Sequence record: NC_049344.1
DNA length: 37,583 bases
Strand: one strand, 5' to 3'
From: Escherichia phage 520873
Shown here: positions 8,952 through 37,558 of the stretch, one piece after another
How positions within the stretch are numbered: the first letter of the stretch is position 1
Layout of the letters: each line of letters starts with the position of its first letter
The notes under the pieces: model-generated
Databases searched by the model: none
Told to the model about the DNA's origin: nothing
The model's input: the letters and a program-made list of their open reading frames with translations, nothing else
Translations under genes and position numbers: made by a program

Positions 8952-9911
8952 ATGAAAATTTGTATCGACGACGGCTCCACCAACATCAAGCTGGCATGGA
9001 CTGAGAACGGCGAACGCCGCAACGCCATCAGCCCGAACAGCTTCAAGTCGGAATGGTCTGCGCCGTTCGGTGGCACGCAGCCCGCGAACTACATGCTTGA
9101 TGGCGTGCGCTATGGTTTTGATCCGGTCAGCGATCGCTTTATCCAGACGACCGACACGCAATACCAGTACAGCGATGTGAATGTCATTGCCATTCATCAC
9201 GCGCTGGTCAAATCAGGCATCACGCCACAGGAGGTGGATGTGGTTGTCACCCTGCCACTGAGCGAGTATTTCGACACAAACGCACAGCCGGACATGGCCA
9301 ACATCAACCGCAAAAAAGCAAACGTTATGCGCCCGGTGGAATACCAGAACGGCGAAGCATTCACTATCCGTAATGTACGGGTTATGCCTGAATCCATTCC
9401 GGCTGGCTTTAAAGCACTGGCTGACATGAGTCCGTTTGAATCCCTGCTGATTGTGGATTTAGGTGGAACCACGCTGGATGTGGCAAAGGTTCAGGGACAA
9501 CTGGCAGGTATCAGCCAGGTGTTTTGCGATCCACACGTAGGCGTTTCCCTGATGGCTGATGCAGTACTGTCGGTGATGGCCACTAACGGTATGCGTACCA
9601 GTCACCACATCGCCAATACCATTATCGAACATCGCCATGATGAAGCCTGGCTGCGCCAGCACATCCACAATGACGCGCATTACGCCAGCCTGATGGCGGT
9701 TATTCGTGAAAAGGAAGAAACACTGAAACAACGCGTGATCCGCGCGCTGGCGGGTTTTTCGGGTTACGGGCGGGTGATGGTTGTCGGTGGCGGGGCGGAG
9801 ATTGTGGCACCCGCTATCCGCGAAGCCTGCGGAGTTAATGCGACTTTCATCGCGGACGGGGTGCCACAGTTTGCTCTGGTTAATGGGCTGTACGCAATGG
9901 ACAAGGAGTAA
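8952..9911 (+). CDS. parM: ParM/StbA-family actin-like segregation ATPase
   Basis: IDDGSTNIKLAW, ISPNSFKSEW, YSDVNVIAIHHALVKSG, MPESIPAGFKAL, LLIVDLGGTTLDVAKVQGQLAGISQVF, VMVVGGGAEIV, ALVNGLYAM align block-for-block with remembered plasmid R1 ParM; RBS AAGGA upstream. Confidence 0.85.
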   Translation: MKICIDDGSTNIKLAWTENGERRNAISPNSFKSEWSAPFGGTQPANYMLDGVRYGFDPVSDRFIQTTDTQYQYSDVNVIAIHHALVKSGITPQEVDVVVTLPLSEYFDTNAQPDMANINRKKANVMRPVEYQNGEAFTIRNVRVMPESIPAGFKALADMSPFESLLIVDLGGTTLDVAKVQGQLAGISQVFCDPHVGVSLMADAVLSVMATNGMRTSHHIANTIIEHRHDEAWLRQHIHNDAHYASLMAVIREKEETLKQRVIRALAGFSGYGRVMVVGGGAEIVAPAIREACGVNATFIADGVPQFALVNGLYAMDKE

Positions 9912-9915
9912 ACCA

Positions 9916-10227
9916 ATGACGACACCAACCAGGCGGATAAGTTTCTATCTGAAGCCTGCGGCCGTCAAGAACGAAAGCGAAGCATGCGCCTGGCTGGACA
10001 GCCTTACACCGGAAGCCCGCAAAAGCGGCCAACGCGTGGCTTTTCTGGCCGGGCTGGCACTTCTGAAAATGAATCCGGCAGAGGCTTACCGACTGGCCGC
10101 ATGGGCTGATGATGAGATGTTACCTGTGACACAAATCAGCTCAAAAAAGTTTGAAGCACAGTCTGCACCAGTGGCTAAGATAACCAGCCAGATGGCTGGG
10201 AATATCCGGGCGTTATTTCCTGAGTAA
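9916..10227 (+). CDS. parR: ParR-like centromere-binding adaptor
   Basis: RRISFYLKP...LDSLTPEARKSGQRVAFLAGLALL...RALFPE parallels remembered R1 ParR (RRTIAFKLNP...LDSIPQGERSRLNRAALTAGLAL...RSLFPKE); RBS AAGGAG, starts 5 nt after the parM stop. Confidence 0.75.
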   Translation: MTTPTRRISFYLKPAAVKNESEACAWLDSLTPEARKSGQRVAFLAGLALLKMNPAEAYRLAAWADDEMLPVTQISSKKFEAQSAPVAKITSQMAGNIRALFPE

Positions 10228-24539: not shown

Positions 24540-25073
24540 ATGATGCACTTAAAAAACATTACTACTGGCAACCCTAAAACAAAAGAGCAATACCAGCTAA
24601 CAAAGCAATTTAACATCAAATGGCTTTATTCAGATGATGGAAAAAACTGGTATGAGGAACAAAAGAATTTCCAGCCAGACACTTTGAAAATGGTCTATGA
24701 CCATAACGGCGTTATTATTTGTATTGAAAAGGATGTTTCAGCAATTAATCCGGAAGGCGCAAGCGTCGTTGAATTACCTGATATTACAGCAAATCGCCGG
24801 GCTGATATTTCGGGTAAATGGATGTTCAAAGATGGCGTAGTGATAAAGCGAACTTATACCGGGGAAGAGCAGAGGCAGCAGGCAGAGAATGAAAAGCAAA
24901 GCCTGTTGCAACTTGTCAGGGATAAAACCCAGTTATGGGACTCACAGCTACGGCTGGGCATCATTTCCGACGAGAGTAAACAAAAATTAACAGAGTGGAT
25001 ACTCTTTGCGCAGAAAGTCGAATCTACAGACACTTCCAGCCTGCCAGTAACGTTTCCCGAACAACCTGAATGA
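24540..25073 (+). CDS. G: Tail fibre assembly chaperone gpG
   Basis: 177-aa ORF after H; N-terminus MMHLKNITTGNPKTKEQYQLTK is homologous to the inverted copy. Confidence 0.8.
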   Translation: MMHLKNITTGNPKTKEQYQLTKQFNIKWLYSDDGKNWYEEQKNFQPDTLKMVYDHNGVIICIEKDVSAINPEGASVVELPDITANRRADISGKWMFKDGVVIKRTYTGEEQRQQAENEKQSLLQLVRDKTQLWDSQLRLGIISDESKQKLTEWILFAQKVESTDTSSLPVTFPEQPE

Positions 25074-25078
25074 GACAA

Positions 25079-25100
25079 GGCCCGATAGCGGGCCTTAATT
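25079..25100. terminator. Hairpin between convergent G and G'
   Basis: GGCCCG-atag-CGGGCC followed by a T-rich run on the plus strand. Confidence 0.4.
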
Positions 25101-25101
25101 T

Positions 25102-25629
25102 TTATTCAGGCTTTTGTGGCCATTCAGGATTTGCCGTATCCACACGGCTGACCAGAACACTGTAGCGTTCCCATGACTCCAGTCGTGTGCGCTCCTCGTC
25201 TGTTGCCATATTCAGCCTGGCAGCGCGTTCCAGTGGCTGGATGACTGATTCAGCTTCGGAAAGCAATGCGGCCTTTTGTGATTCGGCCTGTTGTTGCTGT
25301 TCGTCTGCTGTATAAATCCGCTTAACCACAGTTCCGTCCTTAAACATCCACTTCCCTGAATCATCGGCACGACGATTGACTGTTATATCTGGAATCTCAA
25401 CGACACTAAAGCCTTCGGGATTAAGCGTTGAGGCATCTTTGGTTATGGCAACAATAATATTATTTTCGTCGTAAACAATCTTTATGGTGTCTTCCTGAAA
25501 GCTATTTACTTCCTCATACCAGTTTTTACCGTCTTCTGTATATAACCAGATAACATCAAAATTTTTTGTCAGTTGATATTGGGCAACAGTTTTTGGATTA
25601 CCCGCAGTAATATTTTTTAAATGCTGCAT
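25102..25629 (-). CDS. Alternative tail fibre assembly chaperone G'
   Basis: N-terminus [22 protein letters not shown] homologous to G, diverged C-terminus. Confidence 0.75.
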
Positions 25630-25632
25630 AAA

Positions 25633-26538
25633 TTACACCTGTGCGACGTTATACCATGTGCCATTGATGTATTTTTGTATTGGCCTGAATACTGCGGGGT
25701 CATCACCATCGACTTCACCGACAATACCAAGCCTGGTAATTACGTGCCCTACTTTCTCATACATCACCCCTTTCTGCATGGTCTGGACAACACGTGTGCC
25801 AAGTCTGATATCTCTCACATAGCGGGAATCAAAGTTACCGTAATCCGAGGGATTAACACGCCCCGTAATATTTATAGTCTTATTACTTTGAATGCTTCCG
25901 GAAACAAAGCGCATAACATGGACGTTATTAGCATAAACATCCAGATTACCATCGCCATTTTGTTTAAATCCGGTGTCGTTATCACCAAGAACAATAGAGT
26001 TCCCACCCAACGCGTTATTCGTGCCAAGTGCCAGCCCGCCATCAATCCTGGCACCATTACCAACAAACACAATTCCTGTTCTTAAGTTGATGCCGAATGG
26101 CCTTAATGGCCCAATATCTCCATTTTCACCCTCATTTTCTCGTGTAGGAATGATATACAGGTTTTCTTCAGAACGGCGAAAAATAGCCCCAAAAGATGAA
26201 TTAAATATCCTCAGTGCATTGACTGTAGATATTTTTACTTCACTGCTGAAAAGGGCTTTAACAAGAACATACAGAGCATCCCATTTAAGATTCATCAGGT
26301 CTTTTGTTGTGGTGCTCTGGCGACTTCTCCATTTGAAATATTCATTGCCGTTGTCACCTGTTTCAAACCACATATATGAATCAGTATCGCTGTCGGCATC
26401 ATTTTTAAATCCAATCTTTGCCCAGTCAGTATTTCGAATCCAGGCAAGGATTGAGTCGTTTTCAAAAGTAAGCCCACCGGACAAGGTATCACCATTCTTT
26501 TGCACCGCGTTCCTGGCCCTGTTTACCGTTTCCTGCAA
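25633..26538 (-). CDS. Alternative tail-fibre C-terminal cassette H'v (promoterless)
   Basis: 301-aa open frame ending ...IQKYINGTWYNVAQV, parallel to the H C-terminus ...IQYCINGTWYNAGSI; 5' end lies in the right crossover site. Confidence 0.7.
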   Translation of the reverse strand: MQETVNRARNAVQKNGDTLSGGLTFENDSILAWIRNTDWAKIGFKNDADSDTDSYMWFETGDNGNEYFKWRSRQSTTTKDLMNLKWDALYVLVKALFSSEVKISTVNALRIFNSSFGAIFRRSEENLYIIPTRENEGENGDIGPLRPFGINLRTGIVFVGNGARIDGGLALGTNNALGGNSIVLGDNDTGFKQNGDGNLDVYANNVHVMRFVSGSIQSNKTINITGRVNPSDYGNFDSRYVRDIRLGTRVVQTMQKGVMYEKVGHVITRLGIVGEVDGDDPAVFRPIQKYINGTWYNVAQV

Positions 26539-26555
26539 ACCGAGGTTTTAAATAA
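26530..26555. other. Invertase crossover site, right (gix/cix-like)
   Basis: TTCCTGCAAACCGAGGTTTTAAATAA resembles the Gin gix sequence and is inverted relative to the left site. Confidence 0.55.
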
Positions 26556-26609
26556 TGGCCGTTTCTGGCCTGCATGGCATGATTTGCGCTTTTGGACGGG
26601 AGATTCAGT

Positions 26610-27209
26610 GTGCTGATTGGCTATGTAAGGGTATCAACAAATGACCAGAATACAGACCTGCAACGAAACGCTCTTGTTTGTGCAGGATGTGAACAAATAT
26701 TTGAAGATAAATTAAGCGGGACAAAGACAGACCGACCGGGATTAAAACGCGCTTTAAAGCGCCTTCAAAAAGGTGACACGCTGGTTGTCTGGAAACTGGA
26801 TCGCCTCGGGCGAAGCATGAAACATCTGATTTCTCTTGTCGGGGAACTACGGGAGCTAGGGATTAATTTTCGCAGTCTGACCGACAGCATAGACACATCT
26901 TCTCCAATGGGGCGTTTTTTCTTCCACGTGATGGGTGCCCTGGCTGAAATGGAACGTGAATTAATTGTTGAACGTACACTGGCCGGGCTGGCGGCAGCGC
27001 GCGCAAGGGGGCGCACAGGCGGACGTCGACCGAAGCTGACAAAAGAACAGCATGAGCAAATAGCAAGGCTAATCAAAAACGGGCACGACAGAAAACAACT
27101 GGCAATAATTTACGGCATTGGCACATCGACGATTTATCGTTATCACCCTGTAGGCGATATACAGACTGAAGAAACAACCGGGCAGACTCAGGAAAATGAA
27201 AACCGCTAA
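26610..27209 (+). CDS. Serine DNA invertase, Gin/Hin/Cin/Pin family
   Basis: GTG start gives MLIGYVRVSTNDQNTDLQRNAL...; C-terminal HTH (GTSTIYRY); sits directly beside the crossover site. Confidence 0.85.
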   Translation: MLIGYVRVSTNDQNTDLQRNALVCAGCEQIFEDKLSGTKTDRPGLKRALKRLQKGDTLVVWKLDRLGRSMKHLISLVGELRELGINFRSLTDSIDTSSPMGRFFFHVMGALAEMERELIVERTLAGLAAARARGRTGGRRPKLTKEQHEQIARLIKNGHDRKQLAIIYGIGTSTIYRYHPVGDIQTEETTGQTQENENR

Positions 27210-27237: not shown

Positions 27238-27732
27238 TCAGAACAGCCCTTTAACTGAACTGGCCGCGCTGTTAAGAGATGATGTCACCTTATCTTTGAA
27301 GCCGGACAGCATATCACTGAACGATGAGGATTGCAGGCGCTCCCGCAAATCCTCATCACAGCGTTCAAGAGTCAGTGAAAATTCTATCTTTTTCGCCTTA
27401 CCGTAGCGATCAAACTCGGAGCGGGTCGTATTCGTTTCAGTCAGGACATACATGCCGTAAATCTGCCCGACGCCATCAATCAAAGGCCAGGGTCGTCCTG
27501 TATACGCCTGCGTGGTCAGCAGCGACAGCGACACTTCGCCACCTGTAATTTCAGGATAAAGCACACCAGAAAGAACGATGCGATCATCACCTGCACCGAT
27601 ATACTGCCAGCTTGCTGAACGGTTAACGCGTTCATTTTTCACATGCCGCCAGCTTTTGTTTTGCTGTAACTGCTGATGCGGCAGCGTGCGCAGCTCAAAA
27701 ACAAACATGCCGTAGATCATCATCATGGCCAT
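27238..27732 (-). CDS. U: Tail protein gpU
   Basis: MIYGMFVFELRTLPHQQLQ...VLYPEITGG...PLIDGVGQIYGMYVL parallels remembered P2 gpU. Confidence 0.8.
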   Translation of the reverse strand: MAMMMIYGMFVFELRTLPHQQLQQNKSWRHVKNERVNRSASWQYIGAGDDRIVLSGVLYPEITGGEVSLSLLTTQAYTGRPWPLIDGVGQIYGMYVLTETNTTRSEFDRYGKAKKIEFSLTLERCDEDLRERLQSSSFSDMLSGFKDKVTSSLNSAASSVKGLF

Positions 27733-27738
27733 GACTCC

Positions 27739-30581
27739 TCAATCTTTATCGTAAAAACTGCCACGCCCGGCACGGGCGCGCCGTTCCATTTCTGCCCTGA
27801 CCATTTCACCGACCAGTTTCGCCAGTTCGCGGGGATTCTGCGTAACAACGTTATGCAGATGAACATGAATTTCACCACCAAATCCGGAGGCAACAGGCTC
27901 CCGGTTACGGGAAGTTACAGGAACTGATACCACTGGAGATCGTATAGCCTCCGCCACCGGGCGGGAGCTGGCCGCAACAACAGGGACCAGCGCCGGAGGC
28001 AGCGGAGCCGGGACCACGGGTGTGATATTAATTGCGGGGGCAGGCTTACTGACCTGCGCAATCTTCCGCTCCTGCCACTCCCCACGAACAGCAAGTGCTC
28101 GGGGCAGGTTTTTAAAGACAATATCGCCGGGGCCAATGCGTTTTTTCGTCTCCTCAACCAGCTTACCTGTGTTATCAGCAATTTTGCTGAGTCTGCGCAG
28201 CGTACCGGTATTGCTGTCTGTGAGCGGTTTATTGTCTTTGGGGTTATCACCTCCGGTGCCATTGCCATTTTCCACAGGCTTCGGCGGATTGATTTTCGCC
28301 AGGTCCCCCTGAAGCAAGGCAACCTTGTCCTGAAGAATGGCCGCACGCTGTGCGTCTTCGATTTTCTTGCGCGCCCTTTCCGCTTCATCCGGAAGCACAC
28401 CAAGCTTTTCAAGTATCCACGCCAGCGTATCCAGCAACATTTTTGCAGGTGTCAGAACAAGTTGTAACGCACCGCCAAGAACGTTACCGAATATCTCGCC
28501 AGCACTGGTACATTTATCCAGAGTTTCCTTGCTGGACTCCATCGGTGACAGCAGCGATTTAAACCAGTTAAACACCTGGCTGATCCCACTCCCGATTGCG
28601 TCAAAAACAGGACCAAACCGTTCAAAGGTTTCGCGCAACGGGGTCAGCCTTTCCATAATCCCGCTGAACACCCCGGCAAAAAATGCCCTGATGGGATCCC
28701 AGTATTTCCAGATAAGAACGGCAGCTCCGGCAAGCGCAGCCACGATAAGACCAACCGGACTGAACAACGCCCCGATAGCGCCTCCCAGTAAAGAAACGGA
28801 ACCCGTCACCATTCCCCATAGTGCTGGCAGACCCCTGACAGCATTCATTGATCCGGTCAGGAGGGAAAAACCAAGACGCAGTTTTGCCAGCGGGCCAGCA
28901 AGCACACCAATAGCCAGCGACAACGAGCCAACCGTTGCAGTCATTGCCAGCAGTGCACCGCCTGCAATCAGTAGCTGGCGCGTCAGTGCGGGATGGGCCT
29001 GCGCCAGCGCCGTCACCTTTGATACCACACGCGTGAGCCACTGCGTGACAGAACGCAGCGGACCGTCAATCAGATCTGCAATGCGGATGCGCAACCCTTC
29101 CCATGCACTGCTGAGTGATTTCAGATCGCCGTCAAGGTTGTTGGCCATAACCTTTGCCGTGCGTTCAGCCTCACCGCGCGCGCCTTCAAGTTCTTTTCTC
29201 AGTTTGGGTAAGGAGCCGTCACCTGCCGCATCAACGAGGGCCATAAATGATGTGAAAGCCTCTTCTCCGGCAATGTCCTTAAAGAACGATACCCGGTCAA
29301 CTTCCCCGTATTTGCGGGTAGCTTTATAAAGGTCAGCCAGCACATCCTCCATCGGGCGCATTTTGCCCCCGGCATCCGAGACAGACACGCCAAGCTCTTT
29401 CAGCGCCTCTGCTGCCGCCTTTGGCGGTGATGCCAGACGAGCCAGGCTGGCACGCATTGCCGTACCAGCATCACTCCCCTGATACCCATATTCGCCAGCA
29501 CGCCCGCCATCGCTGCGGCCTGCTCCAGCGATATTCCCAGCTTACCCGCCACCGGACCTGCATATTTCATGGTTTCACCCAGTGCGCGAAGGTCAGTGTT
29601 GGTACGGGTAAACGCTGCGGTGAGTGTGTCGCCGACCCGGTCCATCTGGTCAGCAGAAAGACCGAACTGCGTCAGAATATTTGAGCCAATATCCGCCGTC
29701 TCACCGAGGTCCATACCGCCAGCCGTTGCCATGCTCAGTACGCCAGGGAGCGCAGCCTGAATGGCCTGTGGTGTAAAGCCAGCCATTGCAAGAAATGCCT
29801 GTCCACTGGCGGCATCGCCTGCGGTGAACTGCGTTTCAGAGCCAAGTTTTAACGCCTGCTCACGCAGCGCCTTAAACTGCGGGCTGTTCTGGTCGATTCG
29901 CGTCAGTGCCTGAACGCGGGACATCTCTTTGCCGAACCCGATCGCAGGCTGCAAAAAACGCCCGGCAGCATAGCCGCCCGCCGCTGCCGCACCAATTGCC
30001 AGCGCACCACCTGTTTTCAGTTTTCCCGCTGTTTCCTGCGCGCGCGAATACCGCTCACGCGCCCGTGTTACACGCGCAAGCGCCTGCCGTTCGCGTTCAA
30101 GCTGGTTGTTGTACTGTTCGGTGCGTCTGATGGCCTGCTGGATGGTGTTATCGCTGCCTGTCAGGGAAATGCCGTGGCGTTTCAGCTCTCCGCCAAGCTC
30201 CCGCATTTTCTGAATTTCCCGTGTGCGCGATTCATTCAGGCGTTCAAGCCGGGTGCTTAACTGCTGCATCAGCTTTTGTTGTTTTTCGCTGAGCACTGTA
30301 CCCGTGCGTTGTAACTGATTAAGGGCGTTAAGCTGGCGTCGTGCTTTCACGATGCCCGCATCCGCTTTACTGACAGCGTCACGGGCGCGCTCAAATGATC
30401 GCGCCTGACGCTCGAGATTTTTGATCGCCCCCTGCGTTCGCTGGATGGAGTCACCAAACTGCCCCATCAGGCGGCGGGCGTTTTCGGCAGGCCGGGTCAG
30501 CCTGTCAACGGCGCTGAAAGCGACCCGGATATCAAGAGTCTTCATTGTCTGCATTCCCGCTACGAAGTGCCGCCCGCTCAC
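27739..30581 (-). CDS. T: Tail tape measure protein gpT; apparent frameshift at the G4 run near 29476-29479
   Basis: Two overlapping ORFs (29400..30581, 27739..29457); restoring one G gives continuous ...ANMGIRGSDAGTAMRASLARL... Confidence 0.8.
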
Positions 30582-31070
30582 GCCAGCTAACCACTTCGCC
30601 GGGCGTCATCATGAAGATTTCGGCGGGCGACCAGTTAAAAATGGCGGCAATATCCGCCACCAGATCTTCGATGTGCTCAAAGCACACCAGGGTGATTACG
30701 CTGCCGTCTCCTGCACGCTCTTCGCGCCAGAGTCTGGCTCGCTCATAAAATTTACAGCCACAGCGCACAACTGAATAAAATCGCGTGACGACATTTTTTT
30801 AATCATCACTTCATCCAGTCGTGGCGAGGTCACGCGAGGCAACAGCGTGAACATGGTATCCGCTTTCAGATTCAGCACATCAGACAGCGACAGACCACGC
30901 AGGGATCCAGCCTGCTCAATAGCCCCGGTGATCTCCACATACGTGATTTTTTCGCCACCACGCTCAATTGGTCGGGTCAGTTTTACGCCACGTTCGACAG
31001 CCATATCCTCAACTGCCGTCACATTATCCGCCACGGTGTTATTCCGGGTTTCAGTATCGATGTCTTTCAT
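30532..31070 (-). CDS. Tail assembly chaperone E+E' (-1 frameshift product)
   Basis: A second ORF in the -1 frame overlaps the 3' part of E; on the mRNA an A7 run (plus-strand T7 at 30794-30800) sits at the frame junction and the -1 frame opens immediately after it. Confidence 0.5.
30696..31070 (-). CDS. E: Tail assembly chaperone gpE
   Basis: ORF in the gpE position upstream of T. Confidence 0.7.
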   Translation of the reverse strand: MKDIDTETRNNTVADNVTAVEDMAVERGVKLTRPIERGGEKITYVEITGAIEQAGSLRGLSLSDVLNLKADTMFTLLPRVTSPRLDEVMIKKMSSRDFIQLCAVAVNFMSEPDSGAKSVQETAA

Positions 31071-31125
31071 CTGTTGTCTCCTTTTCAGTCAGAGGCGACG
31101 CACTGCGCCGCCAGCATATTACTTA

Positions 31126-31638
31126 TCAGCCAAGCCCAAGCGCGGAACGGATGCGATCGGGCACAATGTCCTTGCCGTCCTTCCGGTAAATGAAGTTCAG
31201 CAGGTCAATCTCCCACAACGGGCGATCGTTAACACTCAGCTTGTAGTAGGTGTTTTTAATGGCGTAAGTGTGTGATGTGGCTTCGCCCTGTTTGGCTTCC
31301 CCCATATCAATTTCCGTCACACGTCCGCGCATTTCGACTTCATACAGGTCGCTTTCTGCATCGGTGTAGTATTCACCCGCAAAACGCAGCAGCGTGCCGT
31401 CAATCGTGCCGCCATACTTAAGGAACAGCTCACGAACTGCGCCCCCCATGACAAAGCTCGCATCAAGCGCGGAGTCGTCCAGACCGAGATCAATACTTAC
31501 CGCACCCATCATGCCACCACCCCGGTAGCTGTCGGTTTTGCGCGTCAGCTTAGGCAGAGTGACGGACGTCACCTTACCCACTTCGTTTTCACCATCCACA
31601 AACAGCGTAAAAAAGCGAAGATGTTTTGGTACAGCCAT
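31126..31638 (-). CDS. FII: Tail tube protein gpFII
   Basis: 170-aa ORF, P2 gpFII size and position. Confidence 0.85.
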   Translation of the reverse strand: MAVPKHLRFFTLFVDGENEVGKVTSVTLPKLTRKTDSYRGGGMMGAVSIDLGLDDSALDASFVMGGAVRELFLKYGGTIDGTLLRFAGEYYTDAESDLYEVEMRGRVTEIDMGEAKQGEATSHTYAIKNTYYKLSVNDRPLWEIDLLNFIYRKDGKDIVPDRIRSALGLG

Positions 31639-31858
31639 CAGACACCTCCCAGCACCGCAAATGCGGGACCAAAGAATTCATCAGTAAACGACTGGTAAAG
31701 CTCCATGTCTTCCAGTGGCGGAACGGGCGTATATTTGTAGCGAATACGCACGCGCCCCTGACGTAAATTCGTGGTGCCGTTATCCACCACGTCATACCAG
31801 CACGACGCCCCAATCAGTTTCCCGGCAGTAACCAGTGAATCCAGTTTTGCCCTGATGG

Positions 31859-33812
<1,954 letters not shown>

Positions 33813-34938
33813 TGATGGCACTGATAACATCTTTCACGTTCGCAGGCGTCAGTGGACTGTCGATGGTTTCAAACTGCGCTTCCGCAATTGAATCAGCCAG
33901 CACCTGTGCGGTTCGGGTATACACCTCAAAGATGTAGGCGTTCGTTTCCGGTGTGCGGTTGCCCCAGAAGCGGAACCCGTTGCGACGAATAATGGTCGTG
34001 ATTTCTTTGTTGTTGAGGCTGTTGGCATCACTGTCTTCGGCCTGCAACGACCAGAACACATGCCTGGACATCCCCAGCACATTTTTAACCGGAACGTTGG
34101 ACAGCGATTTGTGCCAGCCCTGCTCATGGTCAATGTACGCACGAAGGCCGCACGCATAGGCAGGCGCGGGGAACGTTTCGTTTTTGCCACTTTTCGGGTT
34201 GTAGGCGATGAAGTCCGGCCATAAGAGCATCACCTCACGTTCGTTGAATTTCTGGCGGTAGGTAATCGCCTCAGCCATCGTGTTACAGCCGTGACATGAG
34301 GCATACACAAACGCGCGCAGTTTACCCGCAATCACGCACAGGGATTTTGTTACCGCCTCCGTATCCAGCTCCGGCGCGGCCAGAATACGCGGACGGTATC
34401 CGATGCTTTCATCCTGCTCTGCAACAAGCAGCGCATACATCCCCGTATAGCTGCCGTCAGATTCAGAACCACCGATAACCAGTTGATCCTGCGTTTTTCC
34501 GTCTTCTTCTTTGTGTTCAGCCACGCGAACGACGATCACCTTTGTGCTCACCTGGTCTGCGATGGCCTTAAGCGCACGATAAAGCGTCCCCGTTGTTCCG
34601 CATTTTCCCAGCACGTCATTGACGCGGGTCAGCAGTGTGGGCTTGTTCAGCGGGAACAGCTCCGCATCCGCATCATCCGCCGTTGCCACGATACCGATAA
34701 CACTGGAATCAACATCATTAATCGCTGTTACCAGGTCGGTACTTTCCGTAACACGGGCACCATGAAAACGAGTTTCACTCATAGCTTCAGCCCCTTGTAT
34801 CCGTTAAATGATTCGGCAACAATCATCACCCACCACGCGCGTAATCTCACCCCTGCGCCGTTCTCCCGCCACGGCGACAACAAAAAGCAGTAACCCCCTC
34901 CGCACGCACATGCGACCATGCCGCACAGGGAGGGAAAG

Positions 34939-36036
34939 ATGACCGACACCACCATGCAATTGCTCAGTCAGAGCACAGACCCCGTGAAAATGCCGGATTT
35001 TGATATTCTCGCGGAGGGGAAAACGCTGTCCGGCGTGGCAGAGCGCCTGATGAGTCTGTCACTGACCGACAACCGGGGATTTGAAGCGGACCAGCTCACC
35101 ATCACGCTGGATGATGCGGATGGTCAGTTGCAGCTACCGCCACGGGGCGCGCGCCTGACGGTTCTCATTGGCTGGAAAGGAGAACCGCTGACAGAAAAAG
35201 GCACTTACATTGTTGATGAAATCGCTCACGAAGGTCCGCCGGACAGGCTGACTGTTTCAGCCAGAAGCGCAGATTTTCGGGATGAATTTAACGTTAAACG
35301 TGAAGTGTCCTGGCATGATGTGACCGTTGAGCGCGTGGTATCTGCTATCGCTCACCGGTACGGCCTGAAACCGCAAATCAGCGAAATGCTGATGGATATC
35401 GAAATCGACCACGCCGACCAGACCGAAGAAAGCGACATGTCCTTCCTTACGCGCATGGCGGAAATGCTGGCGCAATCACCACGGTAAAAAGCGGTAATCT
35501 GTTATTCATCATGCCAGGCGGTGGCGTGAACGCACAGGGAAAACCATTGCCATCGTTTGCCATCACACGCAGCAGCGGCGATCGCCATCAGTTTCGCATT
35601 GCTGACCGCGAGGCGTATACGGGTGTACGCGCCTACTGGCTTGATCTTAATTACGGGAAAAAGAAAAAGTCAGCGTGAAACGCCGCAAACCGAAAAAGGA
35701 GAAAAGCAGCAGCCGGGAAGGCGACTATATGGAAGGCGCGGAAGCAACGTGTTTGTGTTACGCAAGACTTATCAGAACGAGCAGGCAGCAAGACGTGCAG
35801 CGGCGGCAAAGTGGCAGCAGCTACAACGCGGAGCCGCAGCGTTCTCCATCACGCTGGCGCGTGGACGTGCAGAACTCTATCCCGAAATGCATGGCACGGT
35901 GACAGGCTTCAAAAGTGACATCGACAATCAGGACTGGATTATTGCAAAAGCCGAGCACACCATTGACAACAGCGGCTTTACCACTCAGCTTGAGCTTGAA
36001 GCAAAAATCCCGGAATGGATAGCAGAAACAGAGTAA
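34939..36036 (+). CDS. D: Tail protein gpD (late control gene D); three apparent single-base frameshifts
   Basis: Segments in three frames align in order to remembered P2 gpD (PDFDILAEG...TDNRGFEADQL...SARSADFR...; ...AITRSSGDRHQFRIADREAYTGV...; ...REGDYMEGAEA...; ...AKWQQLQRGAAAFSITLARGRAELYPE...). Breaks fall near 35465, 35670 and 35745, in short A runs where visible. Confidence 0.8.
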
Positions 36037-36230
36037 ACAACTTAGATGCATTAGCCCTGACATTTGTTAACGCGCCTACAGCAAGAATCATAACCAATCT
36101 GACAGCCTACCAAGTGTCAAAATCAGAAGTACCTTACATTAGAATATGTTAATTTGTAGCAAACAAATTTACACACAAATGATTACTGCTGAAATAGCGC
36201 CCATAAATGCCATGTCAGAGGATCCATGTT

Positions 36231-36605
36231 ATGAATATGCAACCAGCAGCCACAGTTGCTGCAGTCTGCCTTGCTGCATATTTTGCTTTACGAAATGAAC
36301 GTAAAAAGAAAGCACTTGAGATTAGAACAACTCAACTAGATCGAATATCTGAGCTAGTAAACCGAGCATCTACCAATTTGATGCAATATACAGGTAGCCT
36401 TGCCTCTATACTGGAAGCGCGCCAAAGAAGATTATCGACCGAACAAAAATTTGACATTAATGTAATTAGCAAATGGAAAGATTGCCTCGATGAGAGTGAG
36501 GTCTGGGCGATTGATATACAGCACTCAGAGCATGTCAGCACAGCCTGGAGTTTCATCGTGAAAAAGAATGGGCTGAATGGAAACAAATATTCCACCATTA
36601 CTTGA
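36231..36605 (+). CDS. Hypothetical membrane-anchored protein in the AT-rich D-ogr cargo region
   Basis: MNMQPAATVAAVCLAAYFALR... N-terminal TM helix; downstream frames stay open in shifted frames (36576..36711 and beyond). Confidence 0.4.
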   Translation: MNMQPAATVAAVCLAAYFALRNERKKKALEIRTTQLDRISELVNRASTNLMQYTGSLASILEARQRRLSTEQKFDINVISKWKDCLDESEVWAIDIQHSEHVSTAWSFIVKKNGLNGNKYSTIT

Positions 36606-37025
36606 TAAAATTGATCAATTCTTTCTCATATCTAAGCCAGGGCAACCTGTTACGTTTATAAATAGCCAAAACAAACAGCTGATGAACTACTTGATTTCTC
36701 AAGATATTTGAGAGCTCAAACAGCAGAAATTGAATCAGTACGTCGGCAGTTACTTCCCAAATGAGAAAGAATTCAGCGAGTTGACTAGCTTTAGACCTAT
36801 CACAATATTTAGCCTATTTAAATCAATAAAGAAAAATGTCATGCAATTTTTCTGTATCGGCGCTCTTAAAAATTGACGCTCTGTTGCAAGCAACCCCAGT
36901 GTTAAACTGGGGTTATTCTTGCTAAGAGACCTTTCTACGGCATCAGTAAACAAAGCGAACTATCAGTTGGAGTCTGAGTAAGTTCAGCCTAAACTAGCGA
37001 CAGTACTACGTTAAGGGAGGTCGCT

Positions 37026-37286
37026 ATGTTTCGTTGTCCGCTTTGTGGCGCATCTGCCCGTATCCGCACCAGTCGTTCGGAAAATGATTCAGATACCGTG
37101 CGGAAAAAATATTACCAGTGTAACAACCTGGAATGCGGCGTATGCTTCTCAACACTGGAGGCTTTCCATAAATTCACATCGAAACACGCCCCCGGCGTTC
37201 ACTCTTCAGAGGGCATCCCGTGGAATGAGCTGCCAGCTTCGCACAGGGGAAACAACCAAATGAGTTTGCCCTTACCTCAGAATTAA
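37026..37286 (+). CDS. ogr: Ogr/Delta-family zinc-finger late transcription activator
   Basis: MFRCPLCGASARIRTSR...YYQCNNLECGVCF matches the remembered P2 Ogr Cys pattern (MFHCPLC...ARTSR...HQCQNVNCSATF); RBS AAGGGAGG. Confidence 0.75.
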   Translation: MFRCPLCGASARIRTSRSENDSDTVRKKYYQCNNLECGVCFSTLEAFHKFTSKHAPGVHSSEGIPWNELPASHRGNNQMSLPLPQN

Positions 37287-37375
37287 CAGGCTGAATTGCC
37301 GGAGTAACAAAAAAGCGATAGATTACGCGCGGGTGCCTTTCGGCTGATGGCTGGAGGAATACCCGAAGGCCAGAT

Positions 37376-37558
37376 GTGGAAAGGCCCCGGAAAACATTTC
37401 TGTTTAACCGAGGCCCTGACCATCTAACCTTAGCAAGTGATAGGTTAGCGCCTCCCCAAAAAAGGAGCAAGCGCTATGTCGCAAAAATCGCTTATGGCCA
37501 TCACGTTCTGCGTGACGGTAATCCTCATCATCTGGATGCTGCACGGTTCGCTGTGTGA
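37376..37558 (+). CDS. Possible mok-like overlapping reading frame of a hok locus
   Basis: ORF overlapping the hok-like ORF in another frame, as in hok/mok/sok loci. Confidence 0.3.
   Translation: MERPRKTFLFNRGPDHLTLASDRLAPPQKRSKRYVAKIAYGHHVLRDGNPHHLDAARFAV

Follow-up and report, generated by a model that had tools for sequence, protein, structure and literature searches.

The window analyzed here is the whole 37,583-nucleotide sequence deposited as Escherichia phage 520873 (NC_049344.1), and our subject is the AT-rich DNA that lies in it between gpD, the gene for the late control D/tail protein (34918–36036, plus strand), and ogr, the gene for the Ogr/Delta zinc-finger late activator (37026–37286, plus strand), together with the cargo gene that this DNA carries. 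The left neighbor is represented in the window by two open reading frames (ORFs; 34918–35487 and 35557–36036), its frame also being interrupted by single-base deletions (three fall in the 34–36 kb bin), and its ortholog is intact in related P2-like loci (a PF05954 Phage_GPD match in L007 and a 413-amino-acid (aa) match in L002). The right neighbor was identified from its ORF, from the RefSeq annotation of its orthologs and from the PF04606 match of its counterpart in L007. In phage P88 the junction between the two genes is empty, with about 43 bp from the gpD stop to the ogr start. Homology between the window and P88 ends at 36046 and restarts at 36995, which leaves 948 bp of extra DNA (36047–36994) in the window. 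The GC content of each 200-bp interval from 36000 to 36999 is 0.365–0.42, relative to 0.52–0.59 in gpD and about 0.50 in ogr. The proposal of the first-pass annotation that AT-rich cargo sits between D and ogr is therefore borne out, as 948 bp of foreign DNA separate genes that are adjacent in relatives, both in P88 and in most of the E. coli junctions we sampled. What lies here is a one-gene cassette, or moron, that was acquired horizontally and sits between gpD and ogr in a defective P88-like (Peduoviridae) prophage of E. coli strain 510016, an anatomy of which we are highly confident: it has the placement and the composition of a moron and, in silico, its own terminator, although the U-tract of the latter is only moderate.

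In the window the gene appears broken. Comparison with the chromosome of E. coli 510016 (NZ_CP025851.1), the reference used to count errors, revealed no substitutions in the gene region and eight bases that are absent from the window, all of them in short repeats: GC after 36416, a single A after each of 36444, 36522, 36588, 36672 and 36766, and a T after 36753. When these eight bases are restored there is a single plus-strand ORF at 36231–36876, comprising 217 codons and a TGA stop, whose product is identical to WP_096954265.1. Across the window copy the true reading frame runs through phases 0, 0, 2, 1, 0, 2 and 1, and it is these shifts that produced both the open frames in different phases and the 124-aa product (36231–36605), the only one that the public collection lists for this contig (P0006). 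The whole window matches positions 520556–558167 of NZ_CP025851.1 except at 30 points, of which 29 are single-base deletions and one is a substitution, with no insertion among them; 25 of the 30 lie within 4 kb of its start or 3.6 kb of its end, and nine are at or past 36000. That all 29 length differences are deletions from the window points to sequencing or assembly errors and not to decay, the deletion-only bias being an artifact of assembly instead of a mark of a pseudogene or of evolution. Hence the first-pass annotation was right that the ORF at 36231–36605 exists and that it is part of a longer gene fragmented by indels, the corrected frame being 217 aa long rather than about 50 aa or less, but the indels are artifactual, the 124-aa annotation of the record is wrong and the apparent gene decay in this record was created by its assembly. 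Further genes are falsely frameshifted in the same record, among them gpD and ORFs of the early region, as the differences cluster at 0–4 kb and 34–37.6 kb.

Support that the restored frame is the real one can be found in its substitution pattern. Among four E. coli and Kluyvera alleles the ratio of nonsynonymous to synonymous substitution rates (dN/dS) is 0.25–0.53, from which it follows that the gene is coding and constrained, that is, under purifying selection as judged from these alleles. The start codon, the ATG at 36231, is conserved. Two minus-strand ORFs (36332–36598 and 36750–36953) overlap this conserved plus-strand gene and were rejected as spurious.

What kind of protein does the gene encode? 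Scans of two alleles against Pfam, NCBIfam, PHROGs and PADLOC returned noise only (E ≥ 0.003, inconsistent families), and none of 24 aligned family members matches Pfam or PADLOC. In the defense models of PADLOC-DB v2.0.0 (2023) the best match was REase_II with E = 0.012 over 33 residues, which is noise; a sequence-profile search of the PDB gave nothing under E = 0.38, and a literature search by RefSeq accession found nothing. Taken with the fold searches, then, these searches produced no match to a characterized protein. Homologs were recovered as seven clusters by a word-indexed search, as 23 representatives in 1.84 billion proteins by full HMMER, and as 29 clusters when the family profile was used. 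They come only from Enterobacterales (Escherichia, Kluyvera, Klebsiella, Citrobacter, Salmonella, Enterobacter, Pseudescherichia, Cedecea, Pantoea, Erwinia and Yersinia), and all named ones are called “hypothetical protein.” On these searches the product is a member of an orphan, narrowly distributed Enterobacterales family that comprises some 35 clusters in all.

A feature of the protein already pointed out in the first-pass annotation is its N-terminal hydrophobic helix, PAATVAAVCLAAYFAL, encoded by codons 5–20 (36243–36290), which hydropathy and flanking charge mark as a probable anchor. The claim of an N-terminal transmembrane (TM) helix holds only in part: the helix is hydrophobic, conserved and flanked by a charge bias, but in this allele the hydrophobic run is just 16 residues (P5–L20) with a mean Kyte-Doolittle value of 1.33 over 19 residues, relative to 1.4–2.15 in other alleles. 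The lower value arises because an in-frame 12-nt deletion, shared with strain 510016, has removed four hydrophobic residues (IFIA/IFIG). The second-best 19-residue segment scores 0.86, so there is one hydrophobic segment only. Directly after the helix comes RNERKKK, and across the family the net charge of the 12 residues before the helix is −2 to +1 and that of the 12 residues after it 0 to +4, the charge being higher after than before the helix in nearly every member. Under the well-established positive-inside rule this bias predicts an N-out/C-in orientation with the remainder of the protein in the cytoplasm. We consider a membrane anchor probable on this basis, albeit marginal by hydropathy in this allele. 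A lipoprotein or Sec signal peptide was also considered and rejected, since the Cys is not conserved (most members have W), a basic n-region is lacking, and the residues just after the helix are strongly basic.

Beyond the anchor, an AlphaFold model built from the 24-sequence alignment (pLDDT 83, pTM 0.69) is all-helical; an earlier model based on four close sequences had a pLDDT of 45 and was discarded. The predicted protein consists of the N-terminal hydrophobic helix, a basic juxtamembrane stretch, an up-down four-helix bundle and a C-terminal helix. In the model the first helix extends over 63 residues (5–67), helices 77–89/97–110, 112–132 and 152–188 make up the up-down bundle, the distal loops meet via a small bridge (74–76 with 149–151), and the last helix spans 195–215. 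The juxtamembrane stretch follows the pattern LRNExxKKxLE, and the bundle bears an invariant F-H-R turn and an invariant Trp. A HEPN-like Rx4-6H motif in the bundle was rejected, as there is no conserved Arg 4–6 residues before the invariant His. In a conservation profile of 27 non-redundant members the hydrophobic helix and the juxtamembrane stretch are the most conserved parts, at 1.09 and 1.28 bits respectively, and the most variable are the distal parts and loops (2.3–2.5 bits), where the indels also sit, after residues 67 and 139. Invariant or near-invariant positions are P5, T8, A16, L20, N22, K26, K27, L107, H110 and W118, with P5, T8, A16 and L20 kept at 96–100% within the lowest-entropy segment of the family; V12, L29, E30, R111, R173, L176 and F209 are kept at 85–89%. 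Since T8, V12, A16 and L20 are spaced i+4, they would lie on one helical face. From the model we infer that the F-H-R turn (109–111) and W118 are located at the membrane-proximal end of the bundle, near K26 and K27. That the hydrophobic helix is the best-conserved part of the protein, more so than a mere anchor would need, suggests that the membrane module is likely the working part.

The gene does not travel alone. A block upstream of it (36089–36230), a candidate promoter/leader, is conserved between the P2-like copy of E. coli and the lambdoid and island copies of Kluyvera: DNA homology to the Kluyvera loci begins 142 bp before the ATG in the lambdoid prophage (L003) and 118 bp before it in the integrase island (L005). 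The aligned block holds an invariant GAATATGTTAATTTGT, and within the block TGTTAATTT (36147–36155), invariant in five of five aligned copies, is a candidate extended −10 element, its promoter role being our reading of the alignment; it doubles as the left arm of an 11-nt inverted repeat (36147–36157 and 36163–36173). A Shine-Dalgarno-like AGAGGA (36217–36222), 8 nt before the ATG, is kept in all copies. At the other end, 16 nt past the stop codon, there is a terminator-like hairpin (36892–36914, plus strand) with a 9-bp stem that includes five G-C pairs, followed by ATTCTTGCT; its local fold is −26.7 kcal/mol (z = −5.4), and none of 200 shuffles was equally stable. Reading of the sequence upstream of the gene revealed neither a LexA box nor a Tum-like SOS module, and an Rfam scan of the region found no RNA family within the cassette. 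A weak −35/−10 pair (TTGGAG/TAAACT) across the 36950–36994 flank might drive ogr.

The clearest evidence on the nature of the cassette comes from where else it is found. We examined eleven independent contexts: the P2-like gpD/ogr junction (L001, L002 and L007); a Kluyvera lambdoid prophage, where it adjoins a colicin-like gene (L003, L004 and L006); a Kluyvera integrase island with a type VI retron reverse transcriptase (RT-VI), a TIR protein (PDC-S35) and a MkoC-like helicase (L005); an integrative and conjugative element (ICE), where it adjoins a HipA-like kinase (L012); an ssrA island with PifA (L014); a cysH-side island with the cyclase and 4TM effector of a cyclic-oligonucleotide-based anti-phage signaling system (CBASS) and an nSTAND ATPase (L016); two Rep3 plasmids (L019 and L027); a Rep3 plasmid island with a KAP NTPase, TIR, CBASS and RES (L029 and L030); the transfer-gene (mating-pair formation) cluster of an ICE, between traC- and traU-like genes (L031); and a second lambdoid prophage (L032). 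The defense genes of the Kluyvera, ssrA and cysH-side islands were assigned by PADLOC, which confirmed as defense neighbors the CBASS cyclase with its 4TM effector, the retron RT-VI with TIR (PDC-S35), the MkoC-like helicase and PifA. No neighboring gene is common across the contexts compared. The sole common part of the Kluyvera lambdoid prophage and integrase island is a 966-bp block with 99.4% identity, which consists of 119 bp of upstream DNA, the ORF and 181 bp downstream, and the E. coli and Kluyvera copies can be aligned over a stretch that begins 142 bp ahead of the ATG and ends 7 bp past the stop. Similarly, in another subfamily, blocks of 0.9–1.0 kb are common to the ssrA island, the ICE transfer region and a lambdoid prophage. 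By these alignments the mobile unit is a single gene with about 120–270 bp of upstream DNA that recurs in unrelated mobile elements. In E. coli it is infrequent, with the region present by megablast in 58 of 5,426 complete genomes (about 1%), including the enteropathogenic reference strain E2348/69, with strain 510016 as the closest match; a search of the collection of deposited phage genomes for the region gave no match. In the Kluyvera lambdoid prophage (L003, 6077–7652) the colicin-like neighbor encodes 408 aa that include a colicin pore-forming domain (PF01024), and a 100-aa gene near it on the opposite strand possibly encodes its immunity protein.

The junction itself proved to be a site of variable cargo. 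A gpD/ogr region of this type is present in about 1,330 of the 5,426 E. coli genomes, and in an evenly spaced sample of 60 records we found 31 empty junctions, three with this gene (one disrupted by the insertion sequence IS3) and seven with other single genes, so that 31 of 41 are empty. Five other cargo genes were seen, encoding a DUF3800 protein, a DUF2971 protein that matches the PADLOC candidate PDC-S31, a PIN-domain protein, a ParA-family protein and a 340-aa hypothetical protein, the last as in phage 500465-2. The six different cargo genes have the same 45-bp right flank and 8–25 bp in common on the left, flanks that the empty junction does not have, and this suggests that cargo is swapped by recombination within a common frame. 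In the window the right-hand flank is at 36950–36994: homology to the five occupied junctions with different cargo (L021 and L023–L026) restarts at 36950–36960, that to P88 only at 36995. The main hotspots of P2-like phages are gpA-portal and Z/fun, and these carry mixed cargo that includes partition systems and toxins (PMC9122126). The P2-cargo literature cited here does not mention the precise junction of gpD and ogr in P88-like phages, and a cargo site of this sort is not new in kind. What our sample adds is that the junction in P88-like prophages is a low-occupancy site with at least six alternative single genes. Downstream of ogr, at empty and occupied junctions alike, follows a hok/gef-type module; in the window its toxin ORF starts at 37477 and runs off the end, and a sok-like RNA match lies at 37331–37464 (Rfam RF01794, 46.9 bits against a gathering score of 59, E = 6.5e-9).

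Several features of the prophage around the cassette were also observed. An IS21-family element (IS100/IS100kyp, with istA and istB; 31945–33746) splits the tail sheath gene, whose flanking parts are at 31126–31638 and 33790–34782. This interruption ought to prevent the prophage from forming tails, yet in the polished genome its cargo gene is intact. A direct repeat of 124 bp (99%) is found at 810–932 of the window and in the downstream tRNA-Leu region (L020, 39645–39768) and probably marks attL and attR; if so, the prophage continues for about 1 kb beyond the window and takes in hok and a further small gene. The sheath, tube, E, T and U genes are on the minus strand (27238–34782) and gpD and ogr on the plus strand (34918–37286), as in P88 and 500465-2; gpD is alone on the plus strand and divergent from the sheath gene, unlike its arrangement in classical P2. 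At the classical gpA-portal hotspot there is a ParM/ParR-like partition pair (8952–10227), and about a quarter of P2-like phages have a partition system there (PMC9122126). Two oppositely oriented sets of tail-fiber assembly/tip genes (24540–27209) adjoin a serine recombinase (about 26592–27209), an arrangement that looks like an invertible host-range switch. In L001 and L002 (2209–3000) RefSeq presents gpD as a 264-aa “VgrG/Pvc8 family” protein with a small antisense pseudogene. The gpD ORF of E2348/69 is continuous, with a 413-aa match to the full-length gpD of L007, and the RefSeq start of gpD is probably mis-called.

A major question arising from these observations is what benefit has led so many unrelated elements to carry this one gene. 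We favor a stand-alone anti-phage role at the inner membrane, to which we give a probability of roughly 0.45, because of the promiscuous carriage of the gene by mobile elements, the repeated defense neighbors, the autonomy of the one-gene unit and the combination of a constant membrane part with a variable tip. Under this anti-phage reading the gene would be transcribed in the lysogen from the cassette's own promoter, and the protein would sit in the inner membrane with its N-terminus outside and its bundle in the cytoplasm, acting without partners at the cytoplasmic face. The conserved transmembrane/juxtamembrane module would be the working part, through self-assembly or the binding of a membrane partner, and the variable distal tip of the bundle may recognize the invader. 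The outcome would resemble abortive infection (Abi), with membrane perturbation or premature lysis once a phage product is sensed; we prefer this to a block of DNA entry because the family is tied to no phage lineage and the bulk of the protein is predicted to be cytoplasmic. At its most specific the proposal is of a new stand-alone system of about 220 aa, in which the TM helix and its basic collar are the effector and the bundle tip a direct sensor of a phage product, spread among Enterobacterales prophages, plasmids and ICEs as a 1-kb promoter-plus-gene cassette; in that form we regard it as speculative and rather unlikely to hold in every part.

Several observations weigh against an anti-phage role and should be set beside it. 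The searches made detected no homology to a known defense, exclusion or toxin protein and no enzymatic or nucleotide-binding motif, and the fold matches of the model are generic bundles only. The helix is marginal, with 1.33 in this allele and positive sums by a simple Hessa calculation, so that its insertion is not certain. A strict sigma-70 consensus scan called no site in the upstream block, TGTTAATTT included. Six of the eleven contexts have no recognizable defense neighbor, and guilt by association is in any case weak for single genes in hotspots of mixed cargo.

Among the alternatives, the one that we take most seriously, while thinking it clearly less probable than an anti-phage role, is a benefit unrelated to phages, such as conjugative entry or surface exclusion, envelope stress, cell division, or gut fitness or virulence, by a protein akin to other N-terminally anchored cytoplasmic helical proteins. 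The copy inside the mating-pair-formation cluster of an ICE, between traC- and traU-like genes, is what one might expect of such a role, as are the copies that adjoin plasmid Rep/Par genes and the one beside a HipA-like kinase on an ICE, and the mixed cargo of P2 hotspots, partition systems and toxins included (PMC9122126), also speaks for it. Yet a role specific to conjugation would leave the prophage copies unexplained, no similarity to TraS/Eex-type or division proteins emerged from the library, PDB-profile or fold searches, and defense genes are the commonest recognizable neighbors. Less likely still is superinfection exclusion in which an inner-membrane protein, acting from the cytoplasmic face or by way of its conserved transmembrane face, interferes with a channel or host membrane protein through which incoming phages pass their DNA, so that genome entry is blocked and the cell survives. 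P22 SieA and T4 Imm act by blocking DNA entry at the inner membrane, and the exclusion-factor idea of the first-pass annotation is plausible from genomic context. In favor of such a mechanism, the cargo protein is a small, membrane-associated single protein, borne by a prophage in what appears to be its own transcription unit, and the conserved face of its hydrophobic helix suggests a specific intramembrane partner. The best-conserved motif of SieA is likewise on the cytoplasmic side (PMC10883804). Against this, SieA is always found between genes 16 and 9 of P22-like prophages (PMC10883804), whereas our cassette has no fixed phage lineage or position, being carried by P2-like and lambdoid prophages, Rep3 plasmids, ICEs and chromosomal islands, and the cargo protein has one hydrophobic segment relative to three or four in SieA. 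Classical superinfection exclusion proteins are each bound to a single type of phage and this family is not, which argues against homotypic exclusion in particular.

Two further explanations would make the gene less than an autonomous module, and both fared poorly. Could it be an accessory or regulatory partner of a neighboring system, such as a membrane adaptor of type I CBASS or a companion of the adjacent hok/sok, with the lone copies as remnants? A same-strand family member does lie about 520–575 bp upstream of a SMODS cyclase and S_4TM gene in both a Pseudescherichia chromosome (L016, 7001–10199) and Klebsiella plasmids (L029, 7001–10233). Between these two loci, though, identity is 76% for the family gene and 86% for the CBASS block, and the spacer is not homologous, so they are separate modules; the other nine contexts have no CBASS, the mobile unit is the single gene, and hok/sok adjoins empty junctions too. 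We therefore judge a partner role improbable. Most improbable of all is that the gene is a decaying or functionless remnant whose frame breaks are those of a pseudogene carried by a defective prophage. The seven sites at which the frame of the window copy breaks, the IS100 in the sheath gene of the prophage and the IS1 or IS3 found in this region in some strains would all be in keeping with decay, but the polished chromosome of the very same strain, 510016, has an intact copy, all 29 such differences across the window are deletions alongside a single substitution, at least 80% of the region is present in 54 of the 58 E. coli genomes, dN/dS is below 1 and the family is conserved across genera.

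How, then, does the cassette compare with systems already described? It is like the P2-type morons old, tin and Z/fun in being an insertion of one gene of lower GC between adjacent genes, with a candidate promoter and a terminator hairpin, at a site that holds alternative cargos in other strains; it is unlike them in that its product is unrelated to Old, Tin, Fun or any PADLOC model and in that most of its junctions are empty. P22 SieA is, similarly, a small, prophage-encoded, predicted inner-membrane protein, which acts alone in the lysogen and in which conserved residues on the cytoplasmic side matter (PMC10883804). SieA proteins have 162–164 aa, three predicted TM segments (type A) or four, and the motif FxRYPxEAxxFNK, and the family is defined by a length of about 160–200 aa and a position between genes 16 and 9 (PMC10883804). 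The cargo protein has neither that motif nor that context and possesses a single marginal hydrophobic helix with a 190-aa helical bundle, found in many types of element. Its likeness to the four-helix-bundle sensors of chemoreceptors and histidine kinases (Tar/Tsr, NarQ, QseE and TorS) is structurally generic: Pfam gave no match to 4HB_MCP, the PDB profile match to chemoreceptors has E of about 1, and the flanking charge predicts a cytoplasmic and not a periplasmic domain. A further comparison is with membrane-anchored Abi effectors, among which are the TM effectors of CBASS and Pycsar, lambda RexB and the type III CRISPR effector Cam1. These, too, occur in defense islands and join a cytoplasmic domain to a conserved membrane segment, a design mirrored in the constant membrane part and variable tip of the cargo family. 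They differ in being triggered by a partner enzyme or sensor and in having ligand-binding domains or several TM helices, whereas the cargo protein has no partner gene and no recognized sensor domain.

We conclude that the cassette belongs to a familiar class, the cargo of prophages and other mobile genetic elements that encodes a small membrane-associated protein, and does not, on the evidence given here, amount to a new type of system. Should the protein prove protective, however, it would constitute a very compact, one-gene, membrane-based defense or exclusion module unlike those known, and the pairing of a constant membrane helix with a variable bundle tip offers a testable hypothesis of how sensor and effector may be combined in this Enterobacterales family.

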